Source: a virus (lineage: Duplodnaviria > Heunggongvirae > Uroviricota > Caudoviricetes). From it: a stretch of DNA of 4,989 nt. How positions within the stretch are numbered: position 1 is the first letter of the stretch; every line of letters begins with the position of its first letter. The position numbers and the translations under genes were made by a program. A model generated the notes under the pieces. That model was given only the letters and a program-made list of their open reading frames with translations, was not told the origin of the DNA and did no database searches. Shown here piece by piece: positions 1 through 4,989 of the stretch. The stretch covers positions 1 through 4,989 of the IMG/VR virus record IMGVR_UViG_2698536458_000008; one strand, given 5' to 3'.

Positions 1-103
1 ATCAATAACTTAAACTGGTGGTGATGGTGACATAAAAATCAAAAAATACGCCTTTTTCCGCGAACCGCCCGCCCCGTGGACAGGCCACCCCCACCAGGAG
101 TAC

Positions 104-131
104 CTACAAAAAAGCCGGATTGCTCCGGCTT
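104..131 (-). terminator. Rho-independent terminator ending the minus-strand operon after the SSB-like gene
   Basis: On the minus strand: 8-bp stem AAGCCGGA / UCCGGCUU with loop GCAA, followed by a U-run (UUUUGU); it lies about 15 bp past the SSB-like stop codon (146-148). Confidence 0.6.
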
Positions 132-145
132 CTGTCACTCGTTGC

Positions 146-568
146 TTAAAACGGTATGTTATCCCCGTACGGATCATCATTCCCCGCCTGTTGTTTGGCC
201 CTGTTCAGTGCATCAGTGGCCTGCCCCTGTTGGCCTTTTTTACCGCCCGGTCGCGCCGTTCTGGCACTGATTACACTGTCTGCGATAACCTGCCAGCCCT
301 GCCGCGTTTCTCCGTTCTGGCCTGTCCACTGGCTTACCTGCATGTTACCCGCCACGCTCACCAGCTCGCCTTTCTGGTGCTTTGCCAGTGCGTCAGCCTG
401 TCTGCCAAACGCCAGGACGGATAACCATATCGTCGCCGTTCCGTCATCTGCCTGGCTGCACGGCAGGGGAACCGCCATACTCGCCATCGTCATTTGCGTA
501 CCCTTGCTGGTGGTCTTTAACTGCGGGTCAGCCACCAGCCGCCCGTAAGCCGCTATCTGTGCTGTCAT
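146..568 (-). CDS. ssb: Single-stranded DNA-binding protein (SSB family), 140 aa, accessory copy carried by the element
   Basis: OB-fold core collinear with E. coli SSB (IWLSVLAFGRQADALAKHQKGELVSVAGNMQVSQWTGQNGETRQGWQVIADSVI versus the [40 protein letters not shown] region), Gly/Gln-rich linker and a C-terminal tip ...DDPYGDNIPF resembling the canonical DDDIPF tail. GGAGAG Shine-Dalgarno 8 nt upstream; the ATG overlaps the upstream stop as ATGA (565-568). Confidence 0.85.
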   Translation of the reverse strand: MTAQIAAYGRLVADPQLKTTSKGTQMTMASMAVPLPCSQADDGTATIWLSVLAFGRQADALAKHQKGELVSVAGNMQVSQWTGQNGETRQGWQVIADSVISARTARPGGKKGQQGQATDALNRAKQQAGNDDPYGDNIPF

Positions 569-810
569 GCTGTCTGCTCTCCGGTTTTAACGTTGATGGT
601 TGTCACCTGTTCCGCTTCGGCAATCTCCCGTTCTGTCAGCGTGGCAAAGTTTGCCGCCGTCGTGGTCATGAATGCGCTTATCAGTTCGGGATGTGCTTTC
701 GCGTATCCTTCCCCGGCGTTGCGGTCGATGATTTTTATCGCCACCCTCAGCCAGTGTTCTGTCAAATCAAGGGCGTGAGATTGTGGTTTTTTGGCGTGCT
801 TCGTTGTCAC
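565..810 (-). CDS. Hypothetical protein, 81 aa, translationally coupled to the SSB-like gene
   Basis: ORF in the six-frame track beginning MTTKHAKKPQ; GTG start at 810-808 preceded by GAGG with a 7-nt spacer; stop overlaps the SSB start (ATGA). No family recognised by eye. Confidence 0.55.
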   Translation of the reverse strand: MTTKHAKKPQSHALDLTEHWLRVAIKIIDRNAGEGYAKAHPELISAFMTTTAANFATLTEREIAEAEQVTTINVKTGEQTA

Positions 811-854
811 AGGCTTTACCTCACAGCAATAAAATAAAATTTTTGCATTTTAAC

Positions 855-1084
855 CCTTCACCTGTTCACCTTTTGCAATTTTCCCTTTTTATTCATGATG
901 TTAATGGGTTAACAGTTTCACAAAAACTATTCACCAACTGTTCACCACTGTTCACCCTTAAAGCTCAATAAAGAATCAAAAAGGTGAACAGTGAATAGTT
1001 TGGTGAACAGTTCATAAATAACTGTTCACCCTATAATATACTGATATAAAAGACATTTATTGCAGGGTGAACAGTGGTGAACAG
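855..1084. repeat. Iteron-type replication origin (P4 ori-like): TGTTCACC octamers in both orientations around an AT-rich core
   Basis: Direct TGTTCACC at 863-870, 939-946, 949-956, 1023-1030, with degenerate copies at 855-862 (CCTTCACC) and 928-935 (TATTCACC). Inverted GGTGAACA at 983-990, 1003-1010, 1066-1073, 1076-1083, with a degenerate copy at 991-998. Tandem copies are phased at 10 bp (939/949 and 1066/1076). A perfect 9-bp inverted pair GGTGAACAG(1003-1011) / CTGTTCACC(1022-1030) flanks an AT-rich spacer, followed by the AT-rich stretch 1031-1062. TGTTCACC is the type I iteron bound by the P4 alpha protein at ori and crr. The array sits immediately 3' of the primase-helicase gene. Confidence 0.75.
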
Positions 1085-1113
1085 TTATTCCATAAGTTTA
1101 ATTTTTTCCATCG

Positions 1114-2916
1114 TCATTTGTGACCTATTGCACATGATGGCATCCAGTCTTCTGAATCCTCTGTCAGGGTCACATTTGAACGCAAACCGTGCTTCGTTTT
1201 CCGTTTCATATACTCCCTGCCATATTCCGCCATTGCCCCCGGCATATCTTTACCGAAGCGCGTCAGTGTTACAGGTTTACCGAATCCGTGTGCCCTCATA
1301 TATGCCAGATAGGCGTGATAAAGATACCTGCGCGGACTGAACGGAATAATTTCGGCATTACCCACTAACAGACCATCACACATTACCGACGACATGAGAT
1401 AGCCGCAGAAGTCCACCAGCGAATCGCCCTCGCGTTTTATCACCAGAGCTTCTTCTGATTTCTGCTGCTCATACAGCAGGCGTTTAGCTTCGTCCTGGTC
1501 AGAAAAACGAGTAAGCAGGTGGCGAATCACAACCGCCAGCTCTCCTTCTATTTTTTCTGCCAGCATGGGGTCGCGTTCGTTCTCCGGTACAACTTCCGAA
1601 AAATTGAATATCACCCGACGACGTGAGATCCCCCCGCTGCGGTCACTGAATGACATGGCGTTATTGTTAACCGCCAGCACTACTGCCGGAATACGCGTTG
1701 AGTAGGGGGCTTTGTGTTTCGGGTCAATTGCCACCTTGTCACCGCCTGTAATGGCCTTAATCCCTGCCCCATCACCAGCGTAGCGGGTCATATCCGGCAT
1801 GATAATCAGCGAAAAGCCAACCACTAACGCGCGTTCCCTTGCATCTTCCAGCGCCTTCATGCTTGCCGATACTGTGTTGGCCTTACCCGCCAGCATGGTG
1901 CAAATCTCCGCCATCACGCTTTTACCACTTCCCCCTGGACCTGTTACCTCAATGAATAACTGCCAGTCGTACCGGTTCGCCAGCACCATGAATAATACAG
2001 CCAGTACGCGATCCGCCTTGCGGTCATTCTCAGCCACCGAACGGCGTAACCACTTCCAGAAATTCGGCGCATGTGTTGCCAGCGTTTCCCCCTCTGCTGG
2101 TGGGCTGAAAGGTAATTCACTGGCAATTAACAACCAGTCGTTTTTGTTATGCTCCCGAAAATTACCTGTTCTGGTATCAAATACCCCGTTACTGAATCCA
2201 ATCAGGTTACGGGCTGTATTCCCCATTACAGGCAAACTTAACTTCATGGTATCGACCGCCGATTTAATGGCGTTCTGCGAATAGCTGATCTCCGCATCAA
2301 TGAAAATCTGTGCCATAGCTCGCTGTAATTCTTTATCCTGTACTGGCTCCCATACAACGCCGTTGTAATGGTGAACAGTGTCAGAGTCAGCATGAATCGC
2401 CAGTTCACCGCCATAATGTGCCAGGAGAACTTCGCCGCGTTGACTTGCTCCCATCTGGTTAAGCGCCAGTGATGAAGCGTTATCGTCTTTTACCCGCTCT
2501 TTTTTCTTTACAGGCAGTTCAACTACCTTTTTCTTTTCCGCCTGCTCTGCCCGTTCACGTTCCAGATATTCGCGCCAGTTCTCCCGTTTCTGGCTGTGCA
2601 TTCCTTCAGGGTAATAATCAGCATCCCTGACACCTGCCGCTGCCAGTTTCTGCCCGATGGTATTAACAAGCCCCGGACGCAATAACCCCGCCTGGTAGAG
2701 ACGCACCCGATAGCGTCCGTCCGGTACGATTTGCAGCTTATCCAGTTCGGCAAGTTGTTGTTCTCCAAGCCAGACAGGAGGCACGCTGTCGCCAGCCAGT
2801 CGCCCGTCCTGTTCCTGCCACTGCTTCGCATGTGCCCACGCATCATTACCCGCAAAAATGATGACTTCCGTCATTTTGTCACGCGGCTGGTGTTTTAAAT
2901 TTGGCGCTTTTTTCAT
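1114..2916 (-). CDS. Replication initiator: P4-family primase / D5-like SF3 helicase, 600 aa
   Basis: Walker A FIEVTGPGGSGKSV, Walker B-like LIIMPDMTRYAGD, SF3 motif C-like VVLAVNNNA, and a D5_N-like region upstream (VLLAHYGGELAIHADSD...HYNGVVWEP). Preferred start is the ATG at 2916 (MKKAPNLKHQ...), with GGAGAGAG 5 nt upstream and an ATGA overlap with the upstream gene; the ORF track extends 5 codons further to a GTG at 2931. The cognate iteron array lies directly downstream. Confidence 0.9.
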   Translation of the reverse strand: MKKAPNLKHQPRDKMTEVIIFAGNDAWAHAKQWQEQDGRLAGDSVPPVWLGEQQLAELDKLQIVPDGRYRVRLYQAGLLRPGLVNTIGQKLAAAGVRDADYYPEGMHSQKRENWREYLERERAEQAEKKKVVELPVKKKERVKDDNASSLALNQMGASQRGEVLLAHYGGELAIHADSDTVHHYNGVVWEPVQDKELQRAMAQIFIDAEISYSQNAIKSAVDTMKLSLPVMGNTARNLIGFSNGVFDTRTGNFREHNKNDWLLIASELPFSPPAEGETLATHAPNFWKWLRRSVAENDRKADRVLAVLFMVLANRYDWQLFIEVTGPGGSGKSVMAEICTMLAGKANTVSASMKALEDARERALVVGFSLIIMPDMTRYAGDGAGIKAITGGDKVAIDPKHKAPYSTRIPAVVLAVNNNAMSFSDRSGGISRRRVIFNFSEVVPENERDPMLAEKIEGELAVVIRHLLTRFSDQDEAKRLLYEQQKSEEALVIKREGDSLVDFCGYLMSSVMCDGLLVGNAEIIPFSPRRYLYHAYLAYMRAHGFGKPVTLTRFGKDMPGAMAEYGREYMKRKTKHGLRSNVTLTEDSEDWMPSCAIGHK

Positions 2917-3267
2917 TTCTGCTCTCTCCACGCGGCAATCATGTTTTTCAGTTCCTGTAGTTTTTTATCAACATCCATACATGACACATGGTTATTTCTG
3001 GAAAGCGGGATTTCCCGCCTGAATCTGCTAATAAAGATCTCCACGTTCAGCGAACTATGAAATGAATAGCCATCACGAATAAAATACACACGGTCAAACA
3101 TCAGTTCTTTTACCGTTACTCTGTTACCGTTCNNNNNNNNNNNNNNNNNNNNNNNNNNNNNNNNNNNNNNNNNNNNNNNNACCGTTCTTATCCAGATAAA
3201 TAGCGCCGGGGATAATTTTGGGGTGTGCATAACCGCTGGCAGTCAAGCCAGATAAATACGTTCTCAT
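2913..3267 (-). CDS. Hypothetical small protein immediately upstream of the primase gene, interrupted by a 48-N run (3133-3180)
   Basis: C-terminal part after the gap (NGNRVTVKELMFDRVYFIRDGYSF...AAWREQK) is in the ORF-track frame and its stop overlaps the primase ATG (ATGA at 2913-2916). Before the gap, the frame from the ATG at 3267 reads MRTYLSGLTASGYAHPKIIPGAIYLDKNG; the 7-mer accgttc flanks the N-run on both sides (3126-3132 and 3181-3187), and removing the gap plus one copy joins the two frames into one continuous protein (...YLDKNGNRVTVKELMFD...). Alternative start in the ORF-track frame at 3230. Product unknown. Confidence 0.45.
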
Positions 3268-3273
3268 GATTAT

Positions 3274-3594
3274 TTATCTCAGATTTGAATCAGTATTCGC
3301 TTTCTCTATGGCATTTAATGCATCTGTGGCATTTTCAATGGTGCACCGTAACGAAATATCAAACTGCCCAAGCATTGCCAGTAACAAGCCAATATTACCC
3401 ATGTCAATGCGCATAGCCTTTTCGTCATATTCCTCATTTTCTGACGCATGCCACATCAGGCTACCAATTGACGCAACAGCCATTGATATATTGTCAGTAG
3501 CCCCATCCGCAGCGGAATAAACCTTTTTAGCAATATCATGCTCACAGTTAAAATGCGGATTAATCAGGTACTGGTAATTGGTCATGTCAGGCAT
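3274..3594 (-). CDS. Hypothetical acidic protein, 106 aa
   Basis: ORF with a perfect AGGAGG Shine-Dalgarno 6 nt upstream of the ATG at 3594 (MPDMTNYQYLINPHF...); the ORF-track start at 3636 is 14 codons further upstream and lacks an RBS. TAA stop at 3274-3276. Start overlaps the preceding gene's stop by 8 bp. No family recognised by eye. Confidence 0.6.
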   Translation of the reverse strand: MPDMTNYQYLINPHFNCEHDIAKKVYSAADGATDNISMAVASIGSLMWHASENEEYDEKAMRIDMGNIGLLLAMLGQFDISLRCTIENATDALNAIEKANTDSNLR

Positions 3595-3784
3595 GGCACA
3601 CCTCCTGACGAATACGGGCGGCGAATACAGCAACACAACCTGACGGGCAACGGTTACGCGCTTCGCGTTCCGTCCAGGCGGTTACGTGGATGATTTGAGA
3701 TTCTCCGGCACTCAGGGCCAGAAAACGCCACACAAAGGCCGTTTGTGTGTGTACAAGGTGTGGTATATGATTTACGGCAACCAT
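3587..3784 (-). CDS. Small protein, 65 aa, possibly Icd-like (host cell-division inhibitor family); first gene of the leftward early operon
   Basis: ATG at 3784 preceded by GAGGAG with a 5-nt spacer (the ORF track extends 33 codons further upstream into a hairpin region without an RBS). Sequence MVAVNHIPHLVHTQTAFVWRFLALSAGESQ...TEREARNRC...VFAARI resembles, from memory, the Icd-like proteins annotated next to alpA in P4-like islands; that assignment is unverified. Confidence 0.5.
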   Translation of the reverse strand: MVAVNHIPHLVHTQTAFVWRFLALSAGESQIIHVTAWTEREARNRCPSGCVAVFAARIRQEVCHA

Positions 3785-3813
3785 AACGGCTCCTCGTTTA
3801 CGTTGTTGGTTAG

Positions 3814-3850
3814 AAGCCCTGCGAGTGGTAACGACACTTGCGGGGCTTCG
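3814..3850. other. Long stem-loop (15-bp stem, 7-nt loop) in the regulatory region between the divergent early operon and the RHH gene
   Basis: GAAGCCCTGCGAGTG (3814-3828), loop GTAACGA, CACTTGCGGGGCTTC (3836-3850). As plus-strand RNA all 15 positions pair (13 Watson-Crick plus 2 G-U); as minus-strand RNA 13 of 15 pair. It lies in the 5' leader of the 3784->3587 gene. Confidence 0.4.
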
Positions 3851-3885
3851 TCGTTTCAATTGCTGAATTGCATGTATCAGCACTT

Positions 3886-3957
3886 GTGGTATTCACATTA
3901 CATTTAGGTGAATACCATTTCAAGTCTTTTTTGGTATTCACTTTTGTATTACACTGC
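3886..3957. promoter_or_regulatory. Operator-like repeats (GGTATTCAC) in the promoter region upstream of the RHH gene
   Basis: GGTATTCAC at 3888-3896, its inverted copy GTGAATACC at 3908-3916 (11-bp spacer) and a second direct copy at 3933-3941, plus a degenerate GTATTACAC at 3947-3955, all within about 100 bp of the RHH start codon in an AT-rich region. Confidence 0.45.
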
Positions 3958-3984
3958 ATCCCGTTATTAATGGGAGGTGCAAAC

Positions 3985-4290
3985 ATGTCCAGGAGTTCTG
4001 TTAACAATAAGTCACAGCAACTGAATGCCAGATTTCCACATGAAGTAGTGAGTGGCATTGAGGCATCCCTACAGCCAGGGGAAACTAAAGCGAATTTTAT
4101 AGTTACGGCTGTACGCGGTGAGATCGCCAGGCGCCAGGCAGAAGGAAGTGGAGAAAATCCCCTTGTGTCTTCACTGGATGCCCTAGCTAATGTCGAACAA
4201 ATCGGCATCAAGGCAGCGGAGGAAATCGGGCAGCTTATCACCGTTGCACGCGAAGAACTCCAGCGCCGCAAGGCCAAAGAATCAGAATAA
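3985..4290 (+). CDS. Ribbon-helix-helix (Arc/MetJ/CopG-like) DNA-binding protein, 101 aa; candidate repressor of the element
   Basis: GGGAGGTG Shine-Dalgarno 5 nt before the ATG at 3985. N-terminus KSQQLNARFPHEVVSGIEASLQPGETKANFIVTAVRGEIARRQ fits the RHH beta-strand/helix/helix pattern (compare Arc QFNLRWPREVLD). C-terminal ~50 aa is helical and charged. Opposite orientation to all flanking genes. The ORF-track version starting at 3838 is an unsupported N-terminal extension. Confidence 0.7.
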   Translation: MSRSSVNNKSQQLNARFPHEVVSGIEASLQPGETKANFIVTAVRGEIARRQAEGSGENPLVSSLDALANVEQIGIKAAEEIGQLITVAREELQRRKAKESE

Positions 4291-4347
4291 TCACTATCAG
4301 CGCCGTGGTGTGAGGAACTCCGGCGCATTGCTTTACAGGCGCACACA

Positions 4348-4524
4348 ATGACCAACGAAGAATCAACCAAAAAAACATCACCTGCACGAAAAAGACGACG
4401 CAGAAAGAAAGAGCATGAATCAGAACGATTCGCGCCGTGTTCTTTTGCCCTTGAGAAGTACCTTAAAGAATACTCATCAAAGGAGAGAGCTTCGCAGTTA
4501 TGGCAACGCACTGAAACAGACTGA
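4348..4524 (+). CDS. Putative small basic protein, 58 aa, downstream of the RHH gene (uncertain)
   Basis: My own translation of ATG 4348 to TGA 4522-4524: MTNEESTKKTSPARKRRRRKKEHESERFAPCSFALEKYLKEYSSKERASQLWQRTETD. Same strand as the RHH gene and upstream of the plus-strand terminator, but no convincing RBS; below the ORF-track length cutoff. Confidence 0.25.
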   Translation: MTNEESTKKTSPARKRRRRKKEHESERFAPCSFALEKYLKEYSSKERASQLWQRTETD

Positions 4525-4588
4525 TAGCATTGCCCACCAGCCTGATAGCGGCTATCATTGACATGCTTATGTTTAGTGTTTCCAAACT

Positions 4589-4618
4589 GGCGACCGCCCC
4601 AGGTCGCCTTTGTTTTAT
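4589..4618 (+). terminator. Rho-independent terminator for the plus-strand RHH transcript (possibly weakly bidirectional)
   Basis: GGCGACC (4589-4595), loop GCCCCA, GGTCGCC (4602-4608), followed by TTTGTTTTAT. On the minus strand the same hairpin is followed by a poorer U-tract and lies just downstream of the AlpA-like stop. Confidence 0.65.
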
Positions 4619-4635
4619 GTGTCATATGCTCCCCT

Positions 4636-4845
4636 TTACACTGCCTTACCTGAATTAATGCGATCCCGGCTTTTAACCCATTCCATAACCTCGGACAGCA
4701 GCCACCCTACAGAACGACCGCCCAGATTAAGACGTGACGGAAAGCGCCCTTTTTTCTCCAGTTCGTAACGTGTAGTGCGGCACACTCCAGTTAACTTACG
4801 ACATTCATCCTCACGGATTACGCGATCTTCATTTATTTCACGCAT
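4636..4845 (-). CDS. alpA: AlpA/Vis-family phage transcriptional regulator (excisionase-like HTH), 69 aa
   Basis: MREINEDRVIREDECRKLTGVCRTTRYELEKKGRFPSRLNLGGRSVGWLLSEVMEWVKSR contains the AlpA-type motif (compare E. coli AlpA ...LGVKSVGWIEAEIDEWL). ATG at 4845 gives the family-typical ~70 aa; the ORF-track start (GTG at 4932) adds 29 residues of doubtful coding quality. Confidence 0.8.
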   Translation of the reverse strand: MREINEDRVIREDECRKLTGVCRTTRYELEKKGRFPSRLNLGGRSVGWLLSEVMEWVKSRDRINSGKAV

Positions 4846-4989
4846 ACAAAAACCTACATAAAAATTACGTATATAAACTTTTCTCTTAGCTGTAGATATA
4901 TGAGATCGGATATTACTTAGATTCTTTTTCACCTCTTAAATTAAAAACACAACCATGCTGGTAATGACTCCAACTTATTGATAGTGTTT

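Follow-up and report, generated by a model that had tools for sequence, protein, structure and literature searches.

The arrangement described here has its closest parallels in two known systems. In phage P4, translation of the eta gene lets a read-through transcript escape (Rho-dependent) termination (PMC10111431). In the phage-inducible chromosomal islands (PICIs) of Gram-negative bacteria, of the EcCICFT073 type, the genes follow the order int, alpA, a variable regulatory zone, primase and replication genes, and late genes (PMC6092414), and the global repressor of these elements was stated to be unclear in 2018 (PMC6092414). We analysed a 4,989-nt stretch of DNA (IMG/VR record IMGVR_UViG_2698536458_000008, positions 1 to 4,989; hereafter the window) that is part of a PICI-type phage satellite of Escherichia coli and Shigella; satellites of this type share the gene order given above. 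Our subject is a 58-codon open reading frame (ORF) at 4348–4524 on the + strand, which lies opposite a stop-free frame of 271 codons on the - strand (3810–4625; hereafter the bridge frame), the counterpart of P4 eta. In our view the ORF is probably a small-protein gene in a two-gene operon that would lie antisense within this eta-like frame, accompanied by a promoter-like element and a predicted short RNA. The ORF would form the second cistron of the operon, the first being a putative repressor of the YlcI/YnfO type that resembles ribbon–helix–helix (RHH) proteins.

The 58-aa product (MTNEESTKKTSPARKRRRRKK...) has the poly-Arg/Lys N-terminus that an initial annotation of the window had ascribed to it, and its ORF is very probably a real gene, as judged from the ratio of nonsynonymous to synonymous change (pN/pS), BLOSUM62 scores, ORF integrity and membership of the family phrog_21027. 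Across 49 distinct sequences pN/pS was 0.30 in the frame of the ORF, the lowest of the six frames, against 0.46 in the stop-free antisense frame and 0.54–2.2 in the remaining frames; the comparison of synonymous and nonsynonymous change in relatives, suggested earlier as a check, thus places the constraint in the ORF's own frame. Nearly all changes within codons 11–42 were synonymous in the + frame, including exchanges between AGA and CGA (Arg) and a double change from CTT to TTA (Leu), which are silent in that frame only and hit second codon positions on the other strand. Five diverged copies (the window, the common type, L165 and the two copies of L167) were compared in both frames. Their + frame translations shared 45 % identity with a mean BLOSUM62 score of 2.39 and replacements averaging -0.10, versus 40 %, 1.43 and -1.09 in the antisense frame, the last value being close to that of random replacement. 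In 54/54 distinct homologous sequences the ORF was intact, in the same frame and at least 57 codons long; these sequences were selected through a 15-mer outside the ORF, CATTGCCCACCAGCC, because the first 160 loci had been picked via the peptide itself. Indels within the ORF keep the frame. In two loci (L253 and L208) a very different allele of 63–69 aa occupies the same slot after the same spacer and retains only the core KFALDxF (within the general FAL[DE]xF) and a basic tail, and the divergent homologues P0028 and P0029 keep ER[FY]xPCxFALE[KQ]FLK while the basic run shifts position. Given the own-frame coding signature, the intact ORF and a terminator after every variant, co-transcription of a real gene with the RHH-type gene, as first proposed, is the most likely interpretation.

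Several observations weigh against translation of the ORF, and they can be assembled into an alternative in which the ORF is untranslated and its conservation is the shadow of the eta-like frame on the other strand together with RNA or DNA signals, the + strand being effectively non-coding. The antisense frame is clearly selected against stops and shares wobble positions with the ORF; since third codon positions are common to both overlapping frames, three-base periodicity cannot separate the strands. The gap in pN/pS between 0.30 and 0.46 is moderate, the BLOSUM62 comparison rests on an alignment guided by the + strand protein, and in L253 and L208 the flanks (the spacer and the 15-nt block) are better conserved than the body of the ORF. 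The Shine–Dalgarno sequence is weak, consisting of AGG only (4337–4339), and frameshifted copies occur (P0018, P0019, P0021, P0023, P0024 and P0030). Two of these points had been anticipated. The initial annotation saw no good ribosome-binding site, and it is true that only a weak AGG lies 8 nt before the ATG, but the CAGG that contains it (4336–4339, + strand) is invariant in 24/24 distinct spacers, diverged loci included (columns 41–44 of alignment A3). It also held that frameshifts in close relatives would speak against a gene; such copies do exist, but they are confined to rare clusters of 1–3 sequences, compared with 54/54 intact ORFs in the unbiased set. The antisense frame, moreover, is without amino-acid constraint (pN/pS of 1.33 in the spacer and replacements averaging -1.09), whereas the + frame is constrained, and the first-position synonymous changes are silent in the + frame only. 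A stop-free antisense frame does not by itself hold the + frame open, yet the ORF is intact throughout the unbiased set, and the replaced alleles preserve both length and core motif. An untranslated ORF is thus improbable, and the earlier suggestion that 4348–4524 may instead encode a non-coding RNA is wrong as regards this interval; the candidate short RNA is located just downstream (about 4563–4616).

The bridge frame, recognized from the ORF list, a null model and its P4 counterpart, begins with an ATG at 4625, 11 nt after the alpA stop and preceded by AGGGGAG, ends 20 nt before the ATG of the icd-like gene and covers the whole of the RHH and small-ORF region. The window has 0 stops in this frame versus 27 and 13 in the other antisense phases, which hold 13–33 stops across loci. 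Under a null model in which the + strand proteins were kept, synonymous codons were resampled and non-coding parts were shuffled, the chance of an open frame was about 3e-4 for the window and 2-3e-4 per locus, and an open frame arose in 0/4000 simulations for L167. The frame is open for at least about 600 nt in 159/159 loci, and in 48 distinct motif-selected loci the open run in this phase (that starting at coordinates divisible by 3) measured 1077 nt in the median and never less than 696 nt, the medians of the other phases being 60 and 135 nt. Its length is 419 codons in L165 and 785 in L167; the L167 frame spans two tandem cassettes and begins with a GTG 4 nt after alpA. A point on the other side is that about 12 % of loci have earlier stops in the bridge frame, at scattered positions. 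By these comparisons, selection holds the frame open while its protein sequence is not conserved. The best interpretation is an eta-like frame whose openness serves translation itself, with the RHH/small-ORF operon embedded antisense within it. It is a clear case, backed by statistics, in which antisense genes are crossed by a frame under selection for being translated.

A different interpretation would make the - strand ORF an ordinary coding gene, an N-terminal extension of Icd/Ash as the 'Icd-like pseudogene' label of PGAP would suggest, such that both strands encode functional proteins. The frame is stop-free in all loci, it has a Shine–Dalgarno sequence and an ATG directly after alpA, and in L001, L002, L168, L165 and L167 it continues in frame into the Icd-like domain. 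A stop precedes the icd ATG in the window and L003, on the other hand, and the scattered truncations just mentioned likewise speak against a protein. Profile searches of Pfam, NCBIfam and PHROG assigned no family to the antisense part, whose composition is rich in Ser, Cys and Arg, and the frame passes through terminator hairpins and non-homologous segments. With the pN/pS of 1.33 in the spacer and replacements as radical as random ones, we judge a functional - strand protein to be unlikely. The same considerations led us to reject the - strand ORF as a true 'Icd-like pseudogene' or conserved protein, since it has no family match and its replacements are unconstrained. Such annotations recur: the PGAP annotation places pseudogenes of 'host cell division inhibitor Icd-like protein, incomplete' opposite the small ORF in L001 (4371–4820) and L002 (2857–3450). 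The label is likely an artefact, because the reference proteins fuse the stop-free antisense frame to icd. In some RefSeq genomes, including L003, the small ORF is itself annotated as a 57-aa hypothetical protein (WP_157918692.1); elsewhere in RefSeq it is unannotated and the 'Icd-like pseudogene' stands on the opposite strand. A recurrent annotation artefact opposite an unannotated small gene is thereby explained.

Downstream of the small ORF lies the block CATTGCCCACCAGCC (4528–4542), which is invariant across alleles with variable sequence on both flanks and is retained exactly in L253 and L208, next to their very diverged ORF alleles. Within it are a -35-like TTGCCC and the complement of a Chi octamer, CCACCAGC. 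A sigma-70-like scan called a promoter-like element on the + strand (4530–4558; 9/12 matching positions), with TTGCCC at 4530–4535, a 17-nt spacer and a -10-like TATCAT at 4553–4558, and this was the sole match in 3700–4989. At an offset of exactly 17 nt from TTGCCC, A2 and T6 of the hexamer are retained in 26/26 distinct alleles, versus 0–4/26 at neighbouring offsets, and of the 31 bases that follow the block all vary except hexamer positions 2, 3 and 6. Alleles of the hexamer comprise TATCAT, TATGAT, TATTCT and CATTGT, the last and weakest being always preceded by TGn. To be set against a promoter are the scan itself, in which one match compares with a shuffle mean of 1.8 and so represents no excess, and the fact that the alleles are related by descent and not independent. 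Even so, the conservation of TTGCCC-N17-hexamer provides good comparative support for a promoter.

An RNA of about 50 nt (4563–4616, + strand) is predicted from the promoter-like element and the terminator downstream of it. It would start near 4563–4565, end at the operon terminator and be antisense to roughly codons 4–20 of the - strand eta-like frame; the median predicted length elsewhere is about 75 nt. No known RNA family was found by Rfam at E<=1 in 4291–4620 of the window, nor in the corresponding part of six relatives. The intrinsic terminator of the operon, called by a terminator scan, consists of a stem at 4589–4608 followed by TTTGTTTT (4589–4616, + strand), and a terminator of different sequence stands in the same place in 6/6 variants folded. 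That a terminator follows the ORF in every variant supports the operon boundaries. A common secondary structure of the 3' region was considered and rejected: the variants fold (z -1.7 to -6.8) but into different shapes.

The invariant block admits a second interpretation, namely that it is kept as a Chi site that protects or recombines satellite DNA and that its promoter-like appearance is coincidental. The octamer GCTGGTGG (4534–4541, - strand), found by direct reading, is exact and invariant. The window carries five Chi sites in 5 kb, at 506 and 2096 (+ strand) and at 532, 1413 and 4534 (- strand), and over 167 related loci the density is 0.83/kb compared with about 0.22/kb in E. coli and 0.03 by chance, which is ~4x the E. 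coli average. Chi ranks first among 168 permutations of its letters in related loci, and phage P4 has none. L167b has a mutated proximal copy (CCCACTAGCC) but also an intact second one 35 nt upstream, and breakpoints of homology between mosaic loci begin at 4542, directly after the octamer. Satellites of this type thus appear unusually rich in Chi sites, although the loci are related and the counts are not independent. A role as Chi, however, explains 8/15 invariant bases and not the preceding TTG, and it leaves the invariant A, T and T of the hexamer 17 nt downstream unexplained. The two roles are compatible, and -35 and Chi together account for 12/15 invariant bases. We regard retention of the block for Chi, with a merely coincidental promoter, as possible, though it is not the interpretation to which we incline.

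The -10-like hexamer overlaps the right arm of a 15-bp palindrome, TGATAGC-G-GCTATCA (4543–4557, both strands), which itself overlaps the second copy of a direct repeat, CTGATAGC (4521–4528 and 4542–4549, + strand). Both elements were pointed out in the initial annotation and are present at these positions; the two matches to the octamer compare with 0.10 expected, and a count of 2 was reached in 2/200 shuffles. An inverted CTATCAG at 4294–4300 is a third copy of TGATAG type. In the minimum-free-energy fold the right arm of the palindrome pairs with the first TGATAGC copy. These elements could be taken as operators for the RHH protein or for the small basic protein, the latter resembling a dimer of basic region plus coiled coil. 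There are four TGATAG copies within 270 bp (4294–4300 inverted, 4521, 4542 and 4551–4557 inverted), the 7+1+7 symmetry is perfect, and the palindrome is the commonest allele. Across 211 family loci, however, no copy is conserved. The perfect palindrome is one of two main alleles (91/211, or 111 when one-base variants are included), and in about 40 % of loci GCAAATGTGGCATTGT stands in its place. Both octamers occur together in just 18/211 loci, the first position being usually CTGATTGC (150/211) or CTGATCAC, and the upstream copy reads CCATCAG or CACCAG in most loci. These allele counts indicate that palindrome and octamer are not conserved operators, and a conserved second binding site, as had been envisaged, is not borne out. 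The operator-like repeats of the RHH gene itself differ in sequence (TGGTATTCAC), and the type of palindrome is independent of the type of RHH gene. We consider operator function for these repeats very unlikely; instead, the palindrome seems, from the alignment of alleles, to supply the -10 box of a small conserved promoter.

The small protein matches phrog_21027 (E=7.8e-13, residues 4–54 on profile positions 3–55 of 65). AlphaFold2 with the family alignment gave a disordered basic tail (residues 1–23) and a single helix (24–56) at a mean predicted local distance difference test score (pLDDT) of 72. Its invariant core is ER[FY]xPCxFALExFLK, and the basic run is relocated to the C-terminus in P0029 and L208. 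Homologues of the peptide form 24 protein clusters, all from E. coli or Shigella, and the small ORF was found at one locus among 185,579 species genomes; the family occurs only in PICI-type satellites of these hosts. Taken alone, the small ORF is an ordinary, narrowly distributed hypothetical protein already in PHROG, and no paper on the phrog_21027/WP_157918692.1 family was found in the literature searched. Searches of Pfam, NCBIfam, PADLOC and PDB sequences gave nothing significant for the protein, the only sub-threshold hit being PF22549 (E=0.048). Three considerations detract from the functional part of our proposal. An exhaustive profile search of 1.84 billion representatives returned 10 hits, two of them repeat artefacts, which marks a tiny family; no homologue has a known function or structure, which leaves the proposed role a guess; and the pairing of the ORF with different RHH genes argues against a specific RHH partner. 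The partner is a 101-aa YlcI-type, a 57–59-aa Arc-like or a 59-aa short YlcI-type protein, and in L166/L167 one copy of the small ORF (L167a) has no RHH gene in front. L167 carries tandem copies (3001–4125), a diverged 81-aa version without RHH gene and then a full pair of RHH and 65-aa genes in the same phase.

The order of the two genes within one operon, an RHH-like gene followed by a small one, is that of type II toxin–antitoxin operons with RHH antitoxins, and the initial annotation had raised a toxin–antitoxin or regulator–effector pair. Such an addiction module, RHH antitoxin with small basic toxin, would also be in line with the weak resemblance of the RHH gene to the Rv0623-like antitoxin family, a family of RHH type, in Pfam (E=0.018, below the cut-off). 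Several observations speak against it. The searches of Pfam, NCBIfam and PADLOC gave no toxin or defence family and those of PDB no relative, and the product, a single charged helix, does not look like the known type II toxins. Instead of being tightly coupled, as is usual for such pairs, the genes are set apart by a 57-nt spacer. The RHH gene is exchangeable or absent, the same ORF standing behind three unrelated types and, in L166/L167, behind none. In addition, the RHH gene is divergent to the icd-primase operon and associated with operator-like repeats, which is the placement of an immunity repressor. A toxin–antitoxin function is therefore highly improbable.

The first gene of the operon (3985–4290, + strand) encodes a 101-aa YlcI/YnfO-family, RHH-like putative repressor (NF041551, E=1.3e-16; phrog_6522, E=1.7e-46). 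NF041551 is a model of the YlcI/YnfO N-terminus, and in RefSeq the gene is labelled YlcI/YnfO family protein in relatives. Single-sequence AlphaFold2 prediction gave a pLDDT of 64 and helices at 19–28 and 35–52 with no N-terminal strand; an RHH fold is a possibility suggested by the family match. Between the divergent RHH and icd-like genes, a repeat search found three operator-like copies of TGGTATTCAC (3887–3896, 3908–3917 inverted and 3932–3941), which form the perfect 10-nt inverted repeats I9 and I10 and the direct repeat D2 and may be operator sites, presumably for the RHH protein. A promoter for icd was seen by eye on the - strand (TTGAAA-N17-TAATGT, 3923–3895); its -10 matches at only 3/6 positions and the scan did not call it, and we do not claim it. 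A 15-nt inverted repeat, GAAGCCCTGCGAGTG / CACTTGCGGGGCTTC (3813–3849, 87 % complementary and without a following T-run), lies just upstream of the icd-like Shine–Dalgarno sequence on the - strand, at the end of the bridge frame.

Beyond the 57-nt spacer, the small ORF continues in the frame of the RHH gene. Stop-codon read-through producing a fusion of the two was rejected, as several spacer alleles contain in-frame stops (the window spacer has none). Alignment of spacers revealed a GC-rich hairpin, GCGCCGTGG / CTCCGGCGC (4300–4326, + strand), in which 94.4 % of cells were paired compared with 24–56 % in slid controls and in which the common G.U pairs are compatible with a + strand RNA only. 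Covariation was limited to one compensatory pair, and shuffles performed equally well; the hairpin is conserved and may form in the RNA. As a terminator it is unconvincing, given a loop of 9–15 nt, a poor T-run and the absence of a call by the terminator scan. A 53-codon ORF in frame 2 (4190–4351, + strand) overlaps the 3' end of the RHH gene, and the TGA of its terminal ATGA overlaps the start of the small ORF. The frame is stop-free in 26/26 distinct spacers with a pN/pS of 0.54, and it could reflect translational coupling to the small ORF or chance.

Putting these elements together, the operon would be transcribed convergently to alpA, within the regulatory zone that separates alpA from the replication genes, and the small protein would act as an accessory regulator, produced alongside the repressor in the quiescent satellite. 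Its Arg/Lys-rich tail might contact nucleic acid, and the long amphipathic helix might dimerise or dock on a partner; this role is suggested by composition and position only. Translation of the eta-like frame would provide anti-termination, as in P4 eta. A further extension, which we rate as doubtful, is that these layers form a three-layer switch that constitutes the missing 'repressor module' of a class of Gram-negative PICIs. According to this scheme, the quiescent satellite would make the RHH repressor, the arginine-rich small protein and the antisense RNA of ~50 nt, and an alpA-driven transcript would reach the kil/icd-primase genes only if the eta-like frame were translated. Antisense RNA and convergent transcription would block that translation, Rho would terminate the transcript and the satellite would stay silent until helper-induced transcription of alpA overrode the silencing, with the small protein possibly aiding an RNA–RNA or RNA–protein step. 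Over about 800 bp, translation would then take place on both strands, yielding a useful product from one and serving on the other only as an act in itself.

The remainder of the window is consistent with a PICI-type satellite. Profile searches of its proteins identified, all on the - strand, genes for a single-stranded DNA-binding protein (SSB; 146–568) and a P4-family primase (1114–2931), an icd-like gene with the same domain as P4 Kil (3587–3790; NF033153, E=5.6e-18) and alpA, encoding a Phage_AlpA regulator (4636–4851; PF05930, E=1.8e-16), and this strand additionally carries small ORFs. The sequence TGTTCACC occurs in 9 copies versus 0.24 expected, 8 of them clustered at 863–1083 downstream of the primase gene; these iterons are present in both orientations and are identical to the annotated ori type 1 repeat of P4. 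Weak miRNA 'hits' from Rfam at 912–1025 correspond to the same iterons. Alongside alpA, the icd-like gene and P4-family primase, the iterons and SSB complete the portion of the PICI-type gene set held by the window. The full order is seen in L168 (int, alpA, YlcI and small ORF on the other strand, icd-like, DUF4222, primase, prohead protease/capsid fusion and DUF1441), which corresponds to the PICI type (int, alpA, regulatory zone, primase/ori and late genes in ~10–15 kb) and to the four-zone layout described for Gram-negative PICIs (PMC10111431). This 10,790-bp circular E. coli record (NZ_CP148328.1) was deposited as a non-mobilizable plasmid, has an integrase and may be an excised, circular satellite instead of a plasmid. 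The right edge of the window (4950–4989) matches the end of an IS1-family element found at >10,000 places in plasmid records; an IS1-type insertion upstream of alpA has probably severed the satellite from its integrase. A run of 47 N (3134–3180) falls inside - strand ORFs between the primase gene and a 107-aa gene.

DNA similar to 3800–4640 was present in 1200/5426 complete E. coli genomes, with at least 80 % coverage in only 37, and the most frequently matched part in those genomes was about 4284–4574. The loci are mosaic: most share only about 4230–4580, and exchange affects both the segment beyond 4542 and the RHH N-terminus together with its operators. Some variants, of the L017/L065 type, have a BRO-N-like gene (MNKNIAVTGKGDAR...VVYLNGDPWFVAKD) flanked by alpA and the cassette; it either stands alone (193 aa) or runs on into the stop-free frame (328 aa). 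Neither the region nor the small ORF was matched when deposited phage genomes were searched at the DNA and protein levels.

Proteins of the lambda N and HK022 Nun type are small and largely disordered, with a short N-terminal run of Arg and Lys, and the small protein resembles them. The conserved hairpin just upstream (4300–4326) is a further likeness to these arginine-rich motif peptides. On the side of differences, the small protein has no Pfam or PDB match, its basic run moves to the C-terminus in P0029 and L208, and the hairpin is almost without covariation. The immI regions of P22 (Arc/Mnt RHH repressors and sar antisense RNA) and P1 (c4 RNA, icd and ant) offer another parallel, in that RHH repressors and/or a short antisense RNA control an operon that starts with icd or an antirepressor gene, the first gene under control being Icd-like. 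Unlike these, the locus studied here has no c4 or sar homology (Rfam negative), and its arrangement, convergent with alpA, is enclosed by a read-through frame that would be translated.

The likeness to Gram-negative PICIs extends beyond gene order to AlpA as the activator and, in some variants, to Bro-N genes upstream, comparable to the 'Bro zone' (PMC10111431). An opposite-strand RHH cassette is not mentioned in the published descriptions of these elements (PMC6092414, PMC10111431), and the literature searched held no description of an RHH/small-ORF cassette inside an eta-like frame. In Gram-negative PICIs AlpA switches the element on, and the region analysed here is a candidate for the corresponding silencing module, comprising an RHH-like repressor, a small protein and possibly an antisense RNA.

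With respect to P4, the layout of the bridge frame is like that of eta, whose start overlaps the end of vis (the AlpA homologue) and whose last part is the Kil segment (NC_001609 map). The C-terminus of P4 Eta (Kil) matches NF033153 (E=1.4e-20), the same model as the icd-like gene of the window. P4 Eta also carries Phage_ASH, which is shared by the long ORFs of L165 and L167 and absent from those of the window and L168. Inside the long ORFs of L165 (1703–1891) and L167 (2289–2477), on the - strand, Rfam identified C4 (CI-like; 79–81 bits) and isrK (seqA-like; 62–63 bits) RNAs as in P4; no Rfam match to either at E<=1 occurred in the window, L001–L003 or L168. L165 and L167 thus hold P4-type immunity RNAs plus the RHH/small-ORF cassette, and the window type holds the cassette only. 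The antisense part shows no detectable similarity to P4 Eta (BLASTP E=16), and the window frame, unlike eta, is separated from icd by a stop. A further difference is that frames of the window type cross, antisense, a protein-coding operon of RHH gene and small ORF with its own terminator. In sum, the context is probably a P4 eta-type arrangement in which a protein-coding cassette, and probably a short antisense RNA, lies inside a frame that is open only for translation.

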